This document shows, piece by piece, positions 4,912 to 24,457 of a DNA stretch of 64,000 nucleotides. A program made the position numbers and the translations under genes. Position 1 is the first letter of the stretch, and the number at the start of each line of letters is the position of its first letter. Below the pieces are notes generated by a model. That model was not told where the DNA came from. It saw nothing but the letters and a program-made list of their open reading frames with translations, and searched no databases. Source of the DNA: Lachnospiraceae bacterium (GTDB taxonomy: Bacteria > Bacillota > Clostridia > Lachnospirales > Lachnospiraceae); NCBI GenBank assembly GCA_045593825.1, contig JAZNXI010000177.1, positions 13,280 to 77,279 on the forward strand, given 5' to 3'.

Positions 4912-5499
4912 TTATCGTAATCTGCTTCCTTCAAAACGGATGCGCTGCTCTAAGGTACGTTCTACAAAATCGTATCTGCGCTCCATGGAATCTTTGTCAT
5001 CAGGAAGCAAATCTAAAGAAAGCTCAATGGTTGTCATCAGGCTTTCGTCCAAATCCATACGAAGTTCCCGCAGTACCTTTAGCTTTGCCTGCGCATCTTC
5101 TGCGTCCAAAAAGCGCAGGATTTCCGGACGTACGGATTCTTCGTCGTCGGTTTCCTCTGCTGCTTCTGTGGATTCTAACTTCTGCTGATCAACTACAGGA
5201 GGGGTTTCCTGTACTTCTTCCATTTCTTTGAATGCAGACACAGCCTTCTCTCCGGCGTCACCCGGCGCACATTTTTCGAACCGGTACTCCTGAGCTGCGT
5301 CCGGATATTTTTCCTTATCCACCGGGCTTAAAAACATGTCCAAAGGTCTGGTGTATAAGCAGAAATCGCCATACAGGGCCTGGTACACCACCATCTGCTC
5401 CATGGTTTCGGAATGCTTTGCCACACCGATAATCTGATATAAATTGCCCTTAAAGTGGCGGTAAAATTCGCCGGCAACGGGAATAGCTCTCTTTTCCAT
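4912..5499 (-). CDS. DUF1653 domain protein with acidic linker and helical C-terminal region
   Basis: The N-terminus YRHFKGNLYQIIGVAKHSETMEQMVVYQALYGDFCLYTRPLDMF matches the DUF1653 signature. A GAGGT RBS precedes the start. Confidence 0.7.
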   Translation of the reverse strand: MEKRAIPVAGEFYRHFKGNLYQIIGVAKHSETMEQMVVYQALYGDFCLYTRPLDMFLSPVDKEKYPDAAQEYRFEKCAPGDAGEKAVSAFKEMEEVQETPPVVDQQKLESTEAAEETDDEESVRPEILRFLDAEDAQAKLKVLRELRMDLDESLMTTIELSLDLLPDDKDSMERRYDFVERTLEQRIRFEGSRLR

Positions 5500-17546: not shown

Positions 17547-19304
17547 TTATCTTCTCACCAGCTCCACCAACTGCTCCAAACTCATCTCTCCAAGCTCCTG
17601 CTTATCAAGCTCACCATCTCTCTGCCGTACGGAAACAGAACCGTTCTTCTGCTCATTCTCGCCCACGATTACCATAAACGGCACCTTATCCATACGTGCT
17701 TCGCGGATTTTGTAGCCAAGCTTTTCATTGCGCAAATCTAATTCTGCCCGAACATCTGCATCTTCCAATTTTTCAGCCACTTCTTTTGCGTAGTCCATGT
17801 ACTTATCCGAAACCGGAAGAATTTTTACCTGCACCGGAGCCAGCCAAGACGGGAACTTTCCAGCGTAATGCTCAATTAAAATGCCGATAAAGCGCTCAAT
17901 GGAACCGAATACCACACGGTGCAGCATAATCGGGCGGTGCTTTTCGCCGTCGGCACCGATGTACTCAATACCAAAGCGCTGCGGCAGCTGGAAGTCTAAC
18001 TGAATCGTGCCGCACTGCCACGTTCTGCCAAGGGAATCCTTTAAATGGAAGTCAAGCTTCGGTCCGTAGAAGGCACCGTCCCCTTCGTTTACCACATAGG
18101 ACTTGCCAAGGCCAATAACCGCCTGCTCCAGAGCCTTCGTTGCCAACTCCCATTCTTCATCACTGCCGATGGAATTTTCCGGTCTCGTGGATAATTCGAT
18201 TTGATAGGAAAAACCAAACTTTGCATACACCTTATCAATCAGTCTCATCACGCCCTGAATCTCGTCCATCACCTGGTCTTCACGCATGAAAATGTGGGCA
18301 TCATCCTGCGTAAAGGAACGGACTCTCATAAGACCGTGCAGCGTGCCGGACTTTTCATTGCGGTGCACCAGACCAAGTTCTGCCATGCGGATTGGCAGCT
18401 CCTTGTAGGACCTTGGCTGCAGCTTATACACCAGCATGCCGCCCGGACAGCTCATCGGCTTGATGGCGTAATCCTCATCCTCCACCTGCAGGGAATACAT
18501 CGTTTCTCTGTAGTGGTCCCAGTGACCGGACGTCTCCCAAAGGCTTCTCTCCAACATAATCGGCGTAGACACCTCCACGTAAGCCTCTTTGCGGTGAATT
18601 TTTCTCCAGTAATCAATGAGGAGATTCTTTAACACCATGCCCTTTGGCAGAAACACCGGAAGACCCGGACCTTCGTCAAAAATTGTAAAGATACCCAGCT
18701 CCTTGCCAAGCTTTCGGTGGTCTCTTGCCTTTGCTTCCCCCAGTAGGCGAAGATATTCCTCCAACTGGGATGCCTTTGGGAAAGAGATACCGTAAATTCT
18801 CGTTAACATCGGATTCTTTTCATCGCCCCGCCAATAAGCACCGGCCACAGATAACAGCTTGATTGCCTTAATCTGGCACACATTGGAAATGTGCGGACCT
18901 GCACAGAACTCCTCGTACTCGCCCTGCTTATAAAAGCTGATACGCACGTCATCAGCCAGTTCTCTGATAAGTTCCAGCTTGTACTGCTCCCCTGCCGCTT
19001 CCATGTAGGCAATGGCTTCTTCCTTCGACTTTTCACTTACCTGCAAAGAAAGGGATTCCTTCACAATCTTTTTCATCTCCTCTTCGATTGCGCTTAAATG
19101 CTCGTCAGAAAACGGGAAATCAAATTCAAAATCATAGTAAAAACCGTTTTCAATTGCCGGACCGATGGCACATTTCGTTTCCGGATACAACCGCTTTACC
19201 GCCTGGGCAAGCACATGGGCACTCGTATGCCAAAATGCCTTTTTCCCTTCCAATTCCTCAAATTTCACTTCCATTACTTCGTTGTTGTTTTGTAGAACCT
19301 TCAT
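17547..19304 (-). CDS. thrS: Threonine--tRNA ligase lacking the N-terminal TGS domain
   Basis: Contains the editing-domain motif WHTSAHVLAQAVKRLYP, the class II core (FTQDDAHIF, GAFYGPKLDF) and an anticodon-binding C-terminus. ATG 19304 follows AAGGAGGAAATG. Only about 20 aa precede the editing domain. Confidence 0.92.
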   Translation of the reverse strand: MKVLQNNNEVMEVKFEELEGKKAFWHTSAHVLAQAVKRLYPETKCAIGPAIENGFYYDFEFDFPFSDEHLSAIEEEMKKIVKESLSLQVSEKSKEEAIAYMEAAGEQYKLELIRELADDVRISFYKQGEYEEFCAGPHISNVCQIKAIKLLSVAGAYWRGDEKNPMLTRIYGISFPKASQLEEYLRLLGEAKARDHRKLGKELGIFTIFDEGPGLPVFLPKGMVLKNLLIDYWRKIHRKEAYVEVSTPIMLERSLWETSGHWDHYRETMYSLQVEDEDYAIKPMSCPGGMLVYKLQPRSYKELPIRMAELGLVHRNEKSGTLHGLMRVRSFTQDDAHIFMREDQVMDEIQGVMRLIDKVYAKFGFSYQIELSTRPENSIGSDEEWELATKALEQAVIGLGKSYVVNEGDGAFYGPKLDFHLKDSLGRTWQCGTIQLDFQLPQRFGIEYIGADGEKHRPIMLHRVVFGSIERFIGILIEHYAGKFPSWLAPVQVKILPVSDKYMDYAKEVAEKLEDADVRAELDLRNEKLGYKIREARMDKVPFMVIVGENEQKNGSVSVRQRDGELDKQELGEMSLEQLVELVRR

Positions 19305-19602
19305 GCTACATTTCCTCCTTGTTTTTGAAATATTTTCAATAACACAAGAAAAGCACCCATAAGACCATATCACTACAGTCTTAAGGGTGCATTTAGCACG
19401 GTTCCACCTTAACTTTTCACTTCAGATTCCAACAAATCCTATCCTTTAACGCAGGCATACGGTAACACTTACTGACATTGGGCGTTACAGCTCTGGAATG
19501 GTTTTCGTCTACGTTCCGCATAAGCAACTTCCACCAAATGCTGCTCTCTCTGGATGCTTTCCGGTAAACTACTTGTTTCCGTCAACGCTTTTCTTATGTT
19601 AT
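19305..19602 (-). promoter_or_regulatory. T-box riboswitch leader, Thr (ACC) specifier
   Basis: On the minus strand the stem I AGAGA region is followed by a specifier loop GAAAACCA, with ACC at 19500-19502. The T-box core is GTTAAGGTGGAACCGTG (about 19398-19414). The terminator GCACCCTTAAGAC / GTCTTATGGGTGC plus UUUUCUU lies at 19345-19390. Confidence 0.85.
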
Positions 19603-20323: not shown

Positions 20324-21235
20324 ATGTGGCTTGTTTTTACACTTGTAACAACATTGTTATGGGGTGCGGCCGAATTATTCTACAAAAAAGGCTCCCACGA
20401 AGAAAGAAAGTATGATCATTTAAGAGTATGCGTATTGGTTGGTGCAGTAATGGGAATTCACGCACTACTTACATTGCTGACCTCTGATATCAACTATAAC
20501 CCAATGAACCTCATTGCTTACCTGCCGGTTTCTTTGTGCTATATCTTATCCATGGCCTGCTCCTTCTTTGGAATCCGCTTTATTGAGGAATCCTTAGCAG
20601 ACCCGATTGAAAACACCGCCGGAGCCATGTGTTCCCTTTTGTGTGTTATTTTCCTCGGCGAAACTATTGCACCTTTGGTTTGGGTTGCCATCGGAATCAT
20701 GTTAGTGGGTATTATCGGCGTCAGCTACACCGAAGGCAGTGCCGATGTAGACAGAAAGAAAAGACTTGGCAAGCGGCTAGCAATTGTTGCATTTTTAATG
20801 CCGTTCTGCTATGCATTCATTGATGCTTTGGGAAGCTTCCTTGATATCTTCTTCCTTGAGATGGAAACAAGTCCACTGATTGGTATCACAGAAGAAAATA
20901 TCGAACTTGTGGCAAATATTTCCTATGAATTAACCTTTGCCATTGTTGGTTTAATTTTATTTATTTTCATGAAGCTGAAACGCGTTCCGTTTGAACTTCC
21001 AAAGCAGAAGGACAAAGCCATTGCCGCTGTTTGCGAAACGGCAGGTCAGCTCACTTATGTATACGCCATGAGCGGAAACGGCGCCATTGCCGCACCAATC
21101 CTCTCCTGTGTATGTGTTGTCTCTTTACTTCTTTCCAGAATTTTCTTAAAAGAAAAGCTGACAAAGAAACAGTACCTGTTTATCGGCATCATTATCGTTG
21201 GTATTTTAATGCTTGCCGTATTGGAGGGCGAATAA
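20324..21235 (+). CDS. EamA/DMT superfamily transporter
   Basis: Ten TM helices in two EamA-like halves. AGGAGGATATAAATTTT precedes the ATG. A TTGATT-17-TATAAT promoter lies at about 20248-20276. Confidence 0.8.
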   Translation: MWLVFTLVTTLLWGAAELFYKKGSHEERKYDHLRVCVLVGAVMGIHALLTLLTSDINYNPMNLIAYLPVSLCYILSMACSFFGIRFIEESLADPIENTAGAMCSLLCVIFLGETIAPLVWVAIGIMLVGIIGVSYTEGSADVDRKKRLGKRLAIVAFLMPFCYAFIDALGSFLDIFFLEMETSPLIGITEENIELVANISYELTFAIVGLILFIFMKLKRVPFELPKQKDKAIAAVCETAGQLTYVYAMSGNGAIAAPILSCVCVVSLLLSRIFLKEKLTKKQYLFIGIIIVGILMLAVLEGE

Positions 21236-21251
21236 AACTGATTGTATTACA

Positions 21252-21297
21252 TAAAAACCAGCTATGTACCCCACAAGTACATAGCTGGTTTCTTTTT
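21252..21297. terminator. Bidirectional rho-independent terminator between convergent genes
   Basis: The stem is aaaccagctatgtac / gtacatagctggttt, flanked by an A-run and a T-run. Confidence 0.8.
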
Positions 21298-21319: not shown

Positions 21320-24300
21320 TTATTTAAATTGCTTGTATAATTTCAGATTCTTTTCATTGTTCCCGGCAAATAATATAAAGTAGTCTATCTGCGTTTCTTT
21401 TTCCGTGCAAATGTACTGTCCATACACTCCCACACCGCAAAAGTAGGCGGTATCCTCCGCAGAAACCGAAATACCGTATCCCTTTCCGGAAAGCAGCAGC
21501 GGCATTCTCTTTTTCTTTCCGCCGATGGAAATATAGCGGGCTTTTCCGTTTACCTCTTCCAAATCCTCGTCGAGGATTCCCTTTGCAGATATTTTTTCAC
21601 TCTTTGGCCATTCAAAATAATTCCAGGTCTTTGAAACCTCCGGCTCTATCTGATGGGGTTCCTTGACCGATTCCTTGAACAAAAGTGCTCCCTTCGTATC
21701 CAGGAAACTGAGTGCTCCGCTCTTTTTCTCCATGCGGATGATGAGCTTTTTCGTGATAATTTCAAACATGCTCGGATTTTCCCTGGTAACAAACCGGGAT
21801 ATTTTCTCACCGGTATAGTTCCATTTTCCGGTCGAAAATGTATCTGCCTGCCCTCTGACAAACTGTACCCGCACAATCTCATCCGTAACCGGTGTTACCC
21901 GTAAGATTCCGTAATTGCTCACAAACTCCACAAAGTCCTTGGACTTCTTGACCCAGCGCACACTACAGTCCGCCCTGCTGTGTCCCTTTGGCGTCAGTTT
22001 TTCTGTTTCCACCACGGAAGCAAACTGATATGGGGAAGTGTTAAGTTCTGCCTCGGGTTCCGGACCCGGTGCTTTTTTAACAGGTGCCGGCGTCACTGTT
22101 GTTTTTTCCGGCGTCCTTTGTGCCGGTGTTGCAGCCACTTTCGCCTGTGCTTTCTGTACCTCCGGTTTTGGCTGGTTCAGCCCGTACCGCTTGGTGGTAC
22201 GCTCCAGGAACTTTGCCAGTTCATCCTGCTTTTCTTCTTCGGTCACCTTATAAATCACTCTTGGCGCCGCCGCACGCAGGGTATCCTTTGCACTTTCCAG
22301 CGACTGCAGTTTCTTTTCCTCCGATACCGGTGTGGCAATCAGGTCTGTTAAATCATTCAAATGCACCACTGCCAATTCGTGTAATGCTCTGGTGGCTGCC
22401 ACATACAGAAGCTTTACGTACTGGTCTTCCATCGGATAATGTTCCTTTGACGGATGATACAAAAGCACCGCATCAAATTCCAGACCCTTGGTATATTCCA
22501 CCGGAAGCACCATAACACCTTCGTCAAATACTGCAGTTTCCGGATTACTATCCGCCACCTCTATCTTTTCGCCAAGCATTTTGGTTACCTGCTCCGCTTC
22601 TTTTGCATCAGCACAAATAACCGCAATAGTTTCATGGCCTTCCTTTTTCCAGCCTTCGATTGTTTCTATCACCGCACGGTTCATGTCTTCTTCCGTATCA
22701 TAACCCTTGGTGCTTACCGGGTTTCCGTGACGAAGAATCGGTTCTGCCGGATAAATGGAGAAGTTACCGTGTCGCAGAATTTCTGTGGCAAATTCCGATA
22801 TTTCTACGGTGTTACGGTAGCTCTTTTTTAGAATACCGAAGTTGTCGTAATCGCCGGTAAGAATCAGTTTGCGCAAATCCTCCCAGTCATTTAAACCATA
22901 GCCGTAATGTATGTTCTGGGAAACGTCACCCATAATGGTGTAGGTACAACCTCTGAGGCAGTATGCCAGGGAACCGTAAACCATCATGCCGAAATCCTGA
23001 GCCTCATCAATGATGACATGGGACGCTTCCCGGATTGGATCGATTTCCTTAATCCTCTTGTAAAGATACGCCAGCGCCGCCAAATCATACACATCATATT
23101 TTCCGGGTTCCACAAATATCTGACTGTCCTTTGTCCTCTGGTCTTCTAGAAATTCTTCGTATACGTCAAACAAGGAACCCTTCCACTCATCCCTGCCGAA
23201 GTGAACCTTGCAGGTTCTGTTCAGCTCTTTTTTTTCTTCCGGTGTGTAGGATACCGACTTTCCGGTCAGTTCGTTTTCCAGCCTGCCCATCAGCCATTCG
23301 TTCAGGCCGTTGATTTTGGCCTGCACGGACATCTGTGGGTTGTTCTTTATATAATTTTCTATGGATTTCTGCTCTAAAAGAACTGCCTTGGTTTTTCCGA
23401 TTATCACAGAATTTGCCGGAATTGTCTTTTTTTCATATTCCGCACAGAAGGCTTCCAAATCGTGGAACCATGCATATTCGCCCTTCCGGTACGCTGCTTT
23501 GTTGGTTTCGTCCGTAGGAACAATGCTGTATTTTTTATCATCCCAATCCTCATAAAGCAGGCGGACAAACAACTGCTCCATGGTCATCTGGGAAACGCCG
23601 TATACATCCAACTCCGGCAATACTCCGGTAATGTAATTTAACAAGATGCGGTTACTTCCCACGATGTAAAAATCCACCGGACGGAATTGTTCATAGTTGT
23701 ACAAAATATAGGAAATACGGTGCATAGCCACGGTTGTTTTTCCGGAACCGGCCACGCCCTGTACAATCAAATTCGTTCTTGGAGACCTGCGGATAATAGC
23801 GTTCTGCTCCTTTTGGATAGTACCGATAATTTCACCCAGTACCGCCTTTTTGCTCTTTGCCAGACATTTGGTAAGAAGCTCATCGTTTGCCACCACGTCC
23901 GAGTCAAAAAAGTCTACCAGCTTGTCATTTTCAATTTCGTAGGTACGCTTCCGGAGCAAATCAATTTCATGGACTTTGGTCTCGTTTTCTACCGTATCCT
24001 TTACTTCGTATGTACAATTGCCCAAGGCGTTTTCATAATACACCGATGCCATGGGCGCCCGCCAGTCAATGACCAGCTGCTCCACCCCGTCCGGCGAAAT
24101 GCCCACACGGCCTACATAATAGGATTCCGATTCCGAAACACCTGCATCCTTAAAATCAATTCTTCCAAAGTACGGCTTTTTACGTGCCTTGATGCAGCGG
24201 AGTAAATCCCGCTTGCTTTCCTGAAACAAGGCTTCCGTATTGTGCCATAGGGCGAGCACTTCTTTGTCTTTGGTGTTGTAAGATTCCAACATATCCTGCA

Positions 24301-24457
24301 ACTGCTCCGACAATCCCTTCTGGTGCCCTTCCGCCCGATCCAGGTTGTCCTGTGCCACTGCCAGTATTTTCTTTAGCTGCTGTTCTTCCACTTCCCTGCT
24401 AGTACCGAATACCTTCATTTGGCTGTTCTCCTTCTCTTGGTTGCTTTTCGTGCTCAT
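21320..24457 (-). CDS. helD: HelD (helicase IV, UvrD-like, RNAP-recycling) fused via a Pro/Ala/Lys-rich linker to a GH31-N-terminal-like beta-sandwich domain
   Basis: Contains a HelD N-terminal coiled-coil arm, then KPYFGRIDF...YYVGRVGI, Walker A GVAGSGKTTVAMHR, DEAQD, and YRNT...KGLEFDAV. The last 214 aa resemble the N-terminal domain of GH31 enzymes: LRVTPVTDEIVRVQF, MPLLLSGKGYGISV, IDYFILFAG. An alternative start is ATG 24418, after GAAGGAG. Confidence 0.85.
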   Translation of the reverse strand: MSTKSNQEKENSQMKVFGTSREVEEQQLKKILAVAQDNLDRAEGHQKGLSEQLQDMLESYNTKDKEVLALWHNTEALFQESKRDLLRCIKARKKPYFGRIDFKDAGVSESESYYVGRVGISPDGVEQLVIDWRAPMASVYYENALGNCTYEVKDTVENETKVHEIDLLRKRTYEIENDKLVDFFDSDVVANDELLTKCLAKSKKAVLGEIIGTIQKEQNAIIRRSPRTNLIVQGVAGSGKTTVAMHRISYILYNYEQFRPVDFYIVGSNRILLNYITGVLPELDVYGVSQMTMEQLFVRLLYEDWDDKKYSIVPTDETNKAAYRKGEYAWFHDLEAFCAEYEKKTIPANSVIIGKTKAVLLEQKSIENYIKNNPQMSVQAKINGLNEWLMGRLENELTGKSVSYTPEEKKELNRTCKVHFGRDEWKGSLFDVYEEFLEDQRTKDSQIFVEPGKYDVYDLAALAYLYKRIKEIDPIREASHVIIDEAQDFGMMVYGSLAYCLRGCTYTIMGDVSQNIHYGYGLNDWEDLRKLILTGDYDNFGILKKSYRNTVEISEFATEILRHGNFSIYPAEPILRHGNPVSTKGYDTEEDMNRAVIETIEGWKKEGHETIAVICADAKEAEQVTKMLGEKIEVADSNPETAVFDEGVMVLPVEYTKGLEFDAVLLYHPSKEHYPMEDQYVKLLYVAATRALHELAVVHLNDLTDLIATPVSEEKKLQSLESAKDTLRAAAPRVIYKVTEEEKQDELAKFLERTTKRYGLNQPKPEVQKAQAKVAATPAQRTPEKTTVTPAPVKKAPGPEPEAELNTSPYQFASVVETEKLTPKGHSRADCSVRWVKKSKDFVEFVSNYGILRVTPVTDEIVRVQFVRGQADTFSTGKWNYTGEKISRFVTRENPSMFEIITKKLIIRMEKKSGALSFLDTKGALLFKESVKEPHQIEPEVSKTWNYFEWPKSEKISAKGILDEDLEEVNGKARYISIGGKKKRMPLLLSGKGYGISVSAEDTAYFCGVGVYGQYICTEKETQIDYFILFAGNNEKNLKLYKQFK

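Follow-up and report, generated by a model that had tools for sequence, protein, structure and literature searches.

A HelD-family ATPase of Lachnospiraceae with a conserved C-terminal domain related by profile and fold to the N-terminal beta-sandwich of GH31 enzymes

The ATPase HelD dislodges stalled RNA polymerase from nucleic acids, and it is the main clearing factor for stalled RNA polymerase in Gram-positive bacteria, contacting the polymerase through its N-terminal and clamp arms. Here we analyze helD-CTD, a minus-strand gene in a stretch of 64,000 nucleotides from a Lachnospiraceae bacterium (GenBank assembly GCA_045593825.1, contig JAZNXI010000177.1, positions 13,280 to 77,279 of the forward strand; hereafter the window), whose product joins a HelD core to a C-terminal domain (C-domain) related, by profile and fold comparison, to the N-terminal beta-sandwich of glycoside hydrolase family 31 (GH31). 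This architecture is already on record, because the legend to Supplementary Fig. 5 of Newing et al. 2020 (Nat Commun 11:6420) describes it and NCBI gives such proteins 'DUF4968' names; an earlier note on the window, made from the letters alone, overlooked what was already present in both the literature and the NCBI annotation. According to that legend, two minor HelD families of 74 and 37 entries carry a C-terminal extension with 'DUF4968 or DUF4968 + GH31_N superfamily motifs', are longer than 1000 amino acids and occur only in Clostridiales/Lachnospiraceae. The window protein is a further member of this group. The combination of a HelD of ~750 amino acids with a C-terminal GH31_N motif, the size and the taxonomic range given in the legend all recur here (1032-1045 amino acids, HelD at residues 14-719, homology to the GH31 N-terminal domain, nearest genomes all Lachnospiraceae), and nothing structural differs from what the legend sets out.

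The legend gives the architecture without function, boundaries, selection analysis or origin. Our literature search on the extension returned nothing functional beyond it, with Larsen 2021 and the 2022 review 'What the Hel' silent on the matter. In databases, the name 'DUF4968 domain-containing protein' is attached to five relatives (P0207, P0238, P0254, P0274 and P0284), others are called '3'-5' exonuclease' or 'AAA family ATPase', and JGI labels C-terminal fragments 'PcrA helicase'. Such names hide the HelD identity of these proteins, which is an annotation problem.

Two sets of structures allow the protein to be compared part by part. With B. subtilis HelD (class I; 6WVK, 6ZCA, 6ZFB), the window protein has in common the coiled coil, the DWRAP motif, the Walker A and B motifs of superfamily 1 (SF1) and motif VI; 6WVK chain H is its best relative in the PDB (E = 4.9e-71, query residues 76-707 against 80-762 of the chain). 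B. subtilis HelD (774 amino acids) stops about 12 residues past the aligned core, whereas the window protein adds about 325, comprising a linker, a lead-in and the sandwich. With the GH31 N-terminal domain (PF13802, Gal_mutarotas_2; FjDex31A 6JR6, YicI 1WE5, BoGH31A 5JOU), the C-domain has in common the fold, the strand order and the motifs LRV/I...RV.F, the (E)..YGLG region, vPf..S.kGYG and iDYYf..G....Y. It differs from GH31 in the absence of the barrel, the catalytic residues and the C-terminal domains, in identity of only about 20%, and in being basic where the enzyme domain is acidic or neutral. In addition, GH31 'YGLG' is replaced by '(S)AKG', an invariant KARYISxGG loop and a 28-residue lead-in are new, and the sandwich forms the C-terminus of a cytoplasmic ATPase, whereas it is N-terminal in GH31 enzymes. 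Residue numbers throughout are those of the 1045-residue open reading frame (ORF), and the parts of the protein lie as follows.

22301 to 24418, minus strand: HelD core of class I by its matches to 6WVK chain H and HelD_BACSU, residues 14-719
24179 to 24397, minus strand: N-terminal antiparallel coiled coil, residues 21-93, counterpart of the HelD secondary-channel arm
24053 to 24067, minus strand: DWRAP, the HelD-defining motif, residues 131-135, invariant in the alignment
23735 to 23749, minus strand: Walker A, GSGKT, residues 237-241
22994 to 23008, minus strand: Walker B, DEAQD, residues 484-488
22184 to 22240, minus strand: conserved helix in the linker, residues 740-758, EEKQDELAKFLERTTKRYG
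22043 to 22183, minus strand: basic tether rich in Pro, Ala, Lys and Thr, residues 759-805
21959 to 22042, minus strand: lead-in particular to the HelD family, residues 806-833, with N806-x-S808-P-Y810-x-F812 ... P823-K-G-H826
21323 to 21958, minus strand: beta-sandwich like that of the GH31 N-terminus, residues 834-1045, with neither barrel nor catalytic residues
21500 to 21547, minus strand: near-invariant basic loop GKARYISxGGKKKRMP within the sandwich, residues 971-986

We assessed the ancestry of the C-domain with sequence profiles, structure prediction and fold comparison. Single-sequence scans of the last 214 and 284 amino acids gave no match in Pfam, NCBIfam or PDB sequences, which marks a limit of sensitivity, since homologs were recovered with family profiles and by fold comparison. 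The C-domain has its own family of homologous sequences, and in a search of PDB sequences with the family profile the top four matches were GH31 enzymes, the best being BoGH31A (E = 8.4e-6), where the alignment jumps over an insert of the enzyme and picks up again at 'qlDYYFmaG'. For residues 800-1045, AlphaFold2 (AF2) predicts an all-beta sandwich that ends in a helix (predicted local distance difference test score, pLDDT, 73.6; predicted template modelling score, pTM, 0.75), and the best 50 Foldseek matches in the PDB were all GH31 (top FjDex31A, E = 9e-10, query template modelling score 0.72; YicI, E = 2e-8). PF13802 matched nine of 11 family members (best E = 2.6e-6) and is precomputed for one relative, P0290; the window C-domain itself scored 14.8 bits (E = 0.036), which is below the gathering threshold of 27 bits.

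A hidden Markov model (HMM) scan of 1.84 billion representative proteins gave 699 hits, among which proteins of 650-1280 amino acids match through their N-termini from an E value of about 1e-16 (1e-15 to 1e-16). Nine such full-length matches were scanned (656-1278 amino acids), and all are GH31 with PF13802 and PF01055, eight of them also having PF21365 and DUF5110. Aligned to these enzymes with hhalign, the C-domain family gave 99.7% probability (E = 6.5e-27, 212 columns, 20% identity), with the GH31 core motifs LRV.P...RV.F, P...S.KGYG and DYY...G....Y retained in the sandwich. YicI-type GH31 was more distant, both in hmmsearch against 11 sequences (E = 0.0014) and in the tree, where it had the largest distance. 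The earlier note had put the end of the protein at the point where a barrel would follow, and this is borne out: in four enzymes the match to the profile extends to GH31 residues 236, 249, 264 and 259, stopping 4-8 residues short of the TIM barrels defined by Pfam (starts at 244, 254, 268 and 263), and hhalign places the last residues, 'LYKQFK', on the GH31 'YRqLTG' motif. Pfam scans of the window protein found no PF01055 catalytic barrel at E values up to 1, and neither the proximal nor the distal C-terminal beta-sandwich domain (PF21365, DUF5110). On these profile and fold comparisons, the C-domain is homologous to the GH31 N-terminal beta-sandwich and is non-catalytic.

In its outline of the C-terminus, the earlier note placed at 21323-22175 a linker and a 214-residue domain, the latter with the motifs LRVTPVTDEIVRVQF, IIRMEKKSGALSFLDTKGALL, MPLLLSGKGYGISV and IDYFILFAG in the order of the GH31 N-terminal sandwich. 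All four motifs are present in that order in the last 214 residues, and the likeness holds, as profile and fold searches returned matches to the GH31 N-terminal domain and nothing else. The locus was also right and the domain is real, but the upper in-frame limit is 22174, and the boundaries need revision: the conserved C-terminal region starts at residue 806 and is 240 amino acids long, with GH31 homology from residue ~834-835 over ~212 amino acids. Separately, a 301-amino-acid protein on a 53-kb contig (P0157/P0303) contains only the GH31 N-terminal domain (PF13802, E = 7e-17) without a barrel, and its cluster has a 447-amino-acid member. It may be a stand-alone or truncated GH31 N-terminal domain, and would then bear on how such domains are freed for fusion.

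A protein that ends exactly at the boundary between N-terminal domain and barrel is what a clean deletion could yield, and the earlier note raised the possibility of a frozen remnant of a gene fusion or deletion, in which an adjacent GH31 gene lost its barrel, or an assembly error intervened, and the leftover domain has no function. The check that it proposed, whether the fusion is conserved in related genomes, speaks against this. We scanned one genome per species and obtained 45 loci, all in Lachnospiraceae-type genomes, including the named genera Agathobacter, Roseburia, Blautia, Mediterraneibacter, Marvinbryantia, Catenibacillus, Fusicatenibacter, Acetatifactor, Scybalocola and Lachnobacterium and the cultured isolates Roseburia porci, Catenibacillus scindens DSM 106146 and Agathobacter sp. 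HelD and the C-domain form a single uninterrupted ORF in 41 of the 45, and no separate helD and GH31 genes were found; the remaining four loci comprise two truncated at contig ends, one whose HelD part contains a stop and one reduced to a 55-amino-acid relic. The fusion is likewise present in the 120 nearest HelD-core homologs listed (at least 69% core identity), which are all about 1000-1100 amino acids long, bar a few truncated ones, and include no HelD ortholog without the extension. Every full-length carrier that we scanned with a C-terminal copy of the domain is a HelD.

Selection and phylogeny argue in the same direction. The ratio of nonsynonymous to synonymous substitution rates (dN/dS) was 0.05-0.2 in the C-domain, typically about 0.11, and 0.04-0.09 in the core. 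C-domains were monophyletic relative to GH31 N-terminal domains, pairwise identities of core and C-domain were tightly correlated (r = 0.95 over 780 pairs), and a tblastn search of the window and 48 related loci turned up no remnant of a GH31 barrel or C-terminus. One-ORF conservation, monophyly, co-divergence, low dN/dS and the lack of a barrel remnant indicate, at the level of sequence, a single ancient fusion that has been vertically inherited with HelD in Lachnospiraceae under purifying selection. A remnant left by a recent event is refuted, and the idea of functionless debris in general is highly improbable. A chimeric junction is very unlikely because the fusion is seen in more than 100 independent assemblies and in cultured isolates, and we rejected an assembly chimera on the strength of the 41 species genomes and the 120 homologs. 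Given the homology, the exact truncation at the domain boundary, the single origin, the co-inheritance and the purifying selection, we regard the C-domain with high confidence as an exapted functional module, neither enzyme nor debris. The earlier note had alternatively suggested a recruited protein- or glycan-binding module; recruitment is supported by dN/dS of about 0.1, single origin and co-divergence, but glycan binding is disfavored because the domain is strongly basic and the protein cytoplasmic.

Independent lesions of helD-CTD were found in a single Agathobacter/Lachnobacterium-like lineage whose DNA is about 98% identical; they affect L001, L002, L034 and L048, and L036 is intact. Two independent samples, L001 (5901-6370) and L002 (4121-4590), have an extra T in a T-run just past the HelD core, which splits the gene into a 713-amino-acid HelD and a 354-amino-acid C-domain ORF in different frames with a 62-nt overlap. 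In L048 (1861-2415), an in-frame internal deletion has left a 184-amino-acid fusion in which the HelD N-terminus is joined to the last ~150 amino acids of the C-domain (P0027, in a cluster of 335 member sequences), and L034 has an in-frame stop within HelD. The split form could be taken to mean that HelD and a small GH31-N-like protein are two separate genes in succession and that the single ORF of the window is a sequencing frameshift artefact. However, one extra T relative to the intact L036 ortholog, about 98% identical in DNA, accounts for the split, and all other lineages have a single ORF. We thus rejected an ancestral two-gene arrangement, which has next to no probability. Two stray fragments were also observed: a 55-amino-acid, stop-interrupted C-domain relic in L047 at 5177-5344 (…KARYISFGGMKMRMPLIVS…) with no HelD nearby, probably a pseudogene fragment, and a 268-amino-acid protein on a 1.7-kb contig (P0031), in which N-terminal P-type ATPase sequence (PF00122) is joined to a 70-amino-acid C-domain fragment, most likely an assembly chimera.

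The HelD part of the protein was assigned by comparison with HelD models and structures. NCBIfam HelD_BACSU matched with E = 5e-102 and 342.1 bits, which is below the NCBI equivalog cut-off of 419 bits, and class-II and HelR models reached only 113-131 bits (HelD_MYCSM, 113 bits). The class-II HelD of M. smegmatis (6YXU) was also a far weaker match (E = 9.3e-26) than 6WVK. By these scores the HelD part is much closer to class I than to class II. The Newing legend calls it 'similar to Class II', whereas the scores here point to class I (342 vs. 113 bits; E 5e-71 vs. 9e-26), in agreement with Larsen 2021, which puts clostridial HelDs in class I. The complete HelD of about 720 amino acids described in the earlier note corresponds to residues ~14-719 as delimited by HelD_BACSU and 6WVK. 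Within it, coiled-coil helices are predicted at residues 21-57 and 65-93 (pLDDT about 80-87 in the full-length AF2 model), and the HelD_BACSU profile match covers the coiled-coil region from position 74 onward. VIDWRAPMASVYY at residues 129-141 is invariant among 31 homologs and contains DWRAP, which was defined as a HelD motif in PMC8655204, without the class-III insertion. The SF1 ATPase motifs, including motif VI (VAATRA, beginning at residue 686), are intact and invariant among homologs, and Pfam UvrD_C and AAA_19 also match the core.

Between core and C-domain lies a linker of ~85 amino acids (residues 720-805), which the earlier note had described as ~70 residues rich in Pro, Ala, Lys and Thr. 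Such a stretch exists at residues 759-805, but the linker is longer and not uniform, as the conserved helix at residues 740-758 interrupts it. The tether at 759-805 has pLDDT below 50 and no predicted secondary structure in the full-length model. Across 40 orthologs the whole linker varies from 40 to 155 amino acids, with an isoelectric point (pI) above 8 in 38, and the dN/dS of residues 716-805 (0.06-0.48) exceeds that of both core and C-domain, indicating relaxed constraint. The lead-in that follows has no counterpart in GH31 and is near-invariant, persisting in homologs whose domains are only about 35% identical; in the C-domain model pLDDT stays below 50 over residues 800-828, and the lead-in is predicted to be unstructured in isolation.

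Charge sets the C-domain apart from both the core and the enzymes. In all 40 orthologs the C-domain has a pI of 8.8-9.5 and a net charge of +5 to +13, compared to a pI of 5.0-6.3 for the HelD core; the contrast is about 9.2 vs. about 5.2. The nearest GH31 N-terminal domains have a pI of 4.9-7.1 in eight of nine cases, and that of YicI is 5.1. The loop at residues 971-986 follows the family consensus 'GKARYISxGG(K/R)xxR(M/L)P' and occupies the position of the loop after GH31 'YGLG'. A model consistent with these features is that the sandwich, once recruited, acquired positive charge and became a binding module, the remodelled features being its basic surface, its loop rich in KARYISxGG(K/R) residues and its NxSPYxF...PKGH lead-in. 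The tethered module would contact an anionic partner. Candidates are nucleic acid in the vicinity of the stalled complex and an acidic surface, whether on RNA polymerase or on the HelD core, and such contact could aid the recruitment, retention or regulation of HelD.

A functional analogy is provided by PcrA/UvrD, whose C-terminal Tudor-like domain is reported to bind RNA polymerase (PMC5397179, PMC8318588). There too, an SF1 motor acting at transcription complexes carries a small beta-rich domain on a flexible C-terminal linker, though the Tudor fold is unrelated to that of the HelD C-domain, and RNA polymerase binding by the latter is suggested by analogy. Four features prompt the idea of a tethered binder for an anionic partner, which we offer tentatively and at rather less than even odds: the systematic reversal of charge, the invariant loop of basic residues, the added lead-in motif and a tether that is both long and flexible. 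For the overall reading, in which the HelD and GH31 N-terminal identities are taken together with a binding mechanism, we estimate a probability of about 0.6.

Several observations weigh against this reading. One of the nine close GH31 N-terminal domains is likewise basic (pI 9.0), and the charge shift is a circumstantial basis for a binding partner. The full-length AF2 model is poor (pLDDT 57.8, pTM 0.36), and docking of the C-domain onto the core cannot be inferred from it because its confidence is too low. By the NCBI threshold, and on profile score, the helD-CTD product is a HelD family member and no equivalog of the B. subtilis protein. Finally, because helD-CTD carries several lesions in the Agathobacter-like lineage, the protein may be dispensable or polymorphic, at least there.

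The opposite charges of core and C-domain would also fit a role within HelD, in which the basic C-domain folds onto the acidic core or pairs with a second HelD and gates the ATPase or the engagement of RNA polymerase. Co-divergence of the two parts favors such a role, as does the fact that, in YicI for example, GH31 N-terminal domains contribute to the contacts between subunits of the oligomer. However, a tether that varies from 40 to 155 amino acids is not usual where a domain docks at a fixed site in its own molecule, no confident packing is seen in the full-length model, and a correlation of 0.95 is also expected from plain vertical co-inheritance. We consider this alternative rather unlikely.

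The glycosidase descent of the domain suggests a further alternative, a sensor of carbohydrates or sugar metabolites that would have retained or acquired a site for binding glycans or sugar phosphates and would couple RNA polymerase recycling to carbohydrate status. Its hosts are saccharolytic gut bacteria, Lachnospiraceae being fermenters of fiber and sugars, and its most conserved loop sits where GH31 enzymes have the post-'YGLG' loop, which faces the active-site pocket. Yet the barrel, which the window protein lacks, holds most of the residues with which GH31 enzymes bind sugars and carry out catalysis, and the GH31 N-terminal domain is not known as an independent carbohydrate-binding module. 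The uniform basic shift points to an anionic partner instead, and our synteny comparison found no conserved carbohydrate-gene context. With the sugar contacts in the missing barrel, the domain turned basic and no carbohydrate genes around it, the sensor is disfavored, and we think it improbable. We judge as similarly improbable the broader proposal of a module that senses a sugar, sugar phosphate or nucleotide sugar, or of a new type of nucleic-acid clamp.

We also examined the gene's start, its end and its surroundings. The longest ORF in the window extends from 21320 to 24457 on the minus strand, with 1045 codons encoding 1045 amino acids from the first ATG. That ATG, at 24455-24457, has no Shine-Dalgarno sequence comparable to that of Met14. 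Homologs open with 'MKV.G.SRE', in agreement with a start at Met14, as is the database gene call of 1032 amino acids (P0178). Because of the AGGAG 9 nt upstream, the homolog consensus and the gene call, the true translation start is probably Met14. Gene-level features are as follows.

21320 to 24418, minus strand: helD-CTD gene, start ATG at 24416-24418 (Met14), stop at 21320-21322
24428 to 24432, minus strand: Shine-Dalgarno sequence AGGAG, 9 nt upstream of the Met14 ATG, read from the sequence
21255 to 21291, both strands: bidirectional intrinsic terminator, common to helD-CTD and the convergent EamA gene
20324 to 21235, plus strand: EamA-type transporter gene, convergent with helD-CTD

The gene is monocistronic. 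The strong terminator that the earlier note placed after it is well supported, with a stem of 18-19 bp, a U-tract and a folding free energy of -29.7 kcal/mol (z = -5.2; 0 of 200 shuffled sequences fold equally well). Among the neighbors, RlmH, nitroreductase and threonyl-tRNA synthetase genes are common only to the closest relatives, and EamA at this site is unique to the window. At the corresponding position in the closest relatives L003, L004 and L007 the EamA gene is missing and the nitroreductase gene directly follows helD, which makes EamA look like a lineage-specific insertion. The synteny check found no conserved partner gene beyond the closest relatives, and the neighbors give no functional clue, because they are conserved only there. 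The threonyl-tRNA synthetase gene (17547 to 19373, minus strand) is preceded by a T-box leader (19380-19594, minus strand; Rfam RF00230, 108 bits, E = 7e-24), an ordinary arrangement.

Across Lachnospiraceae, whose members Roseburia, Agathobacter and Blautia are major gut bacteria, the HelD analyzed here carries an extra selected domain of glycosidase ancestry. What had been a one-line supplementary remark now has domain boundaries, a single ancient origin and evidence of purifying selection, and the remodelled features are defined as three mutable targets, the basic surface, the KARYISxGG loop and the NxSPYxF...PKGH lead-in. A glycosidase-derived domain under selection on a transcription-recycling motor is mildly puzzling. 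If the improbable proposal of a sensor or clamp were true, HelD of Lachnospiraceae would gain a regulatory input or a mechanistic step absent from characterized HelDs, for example a coupling of RNA polymerase recycling to carbohydrate availability in the gut.

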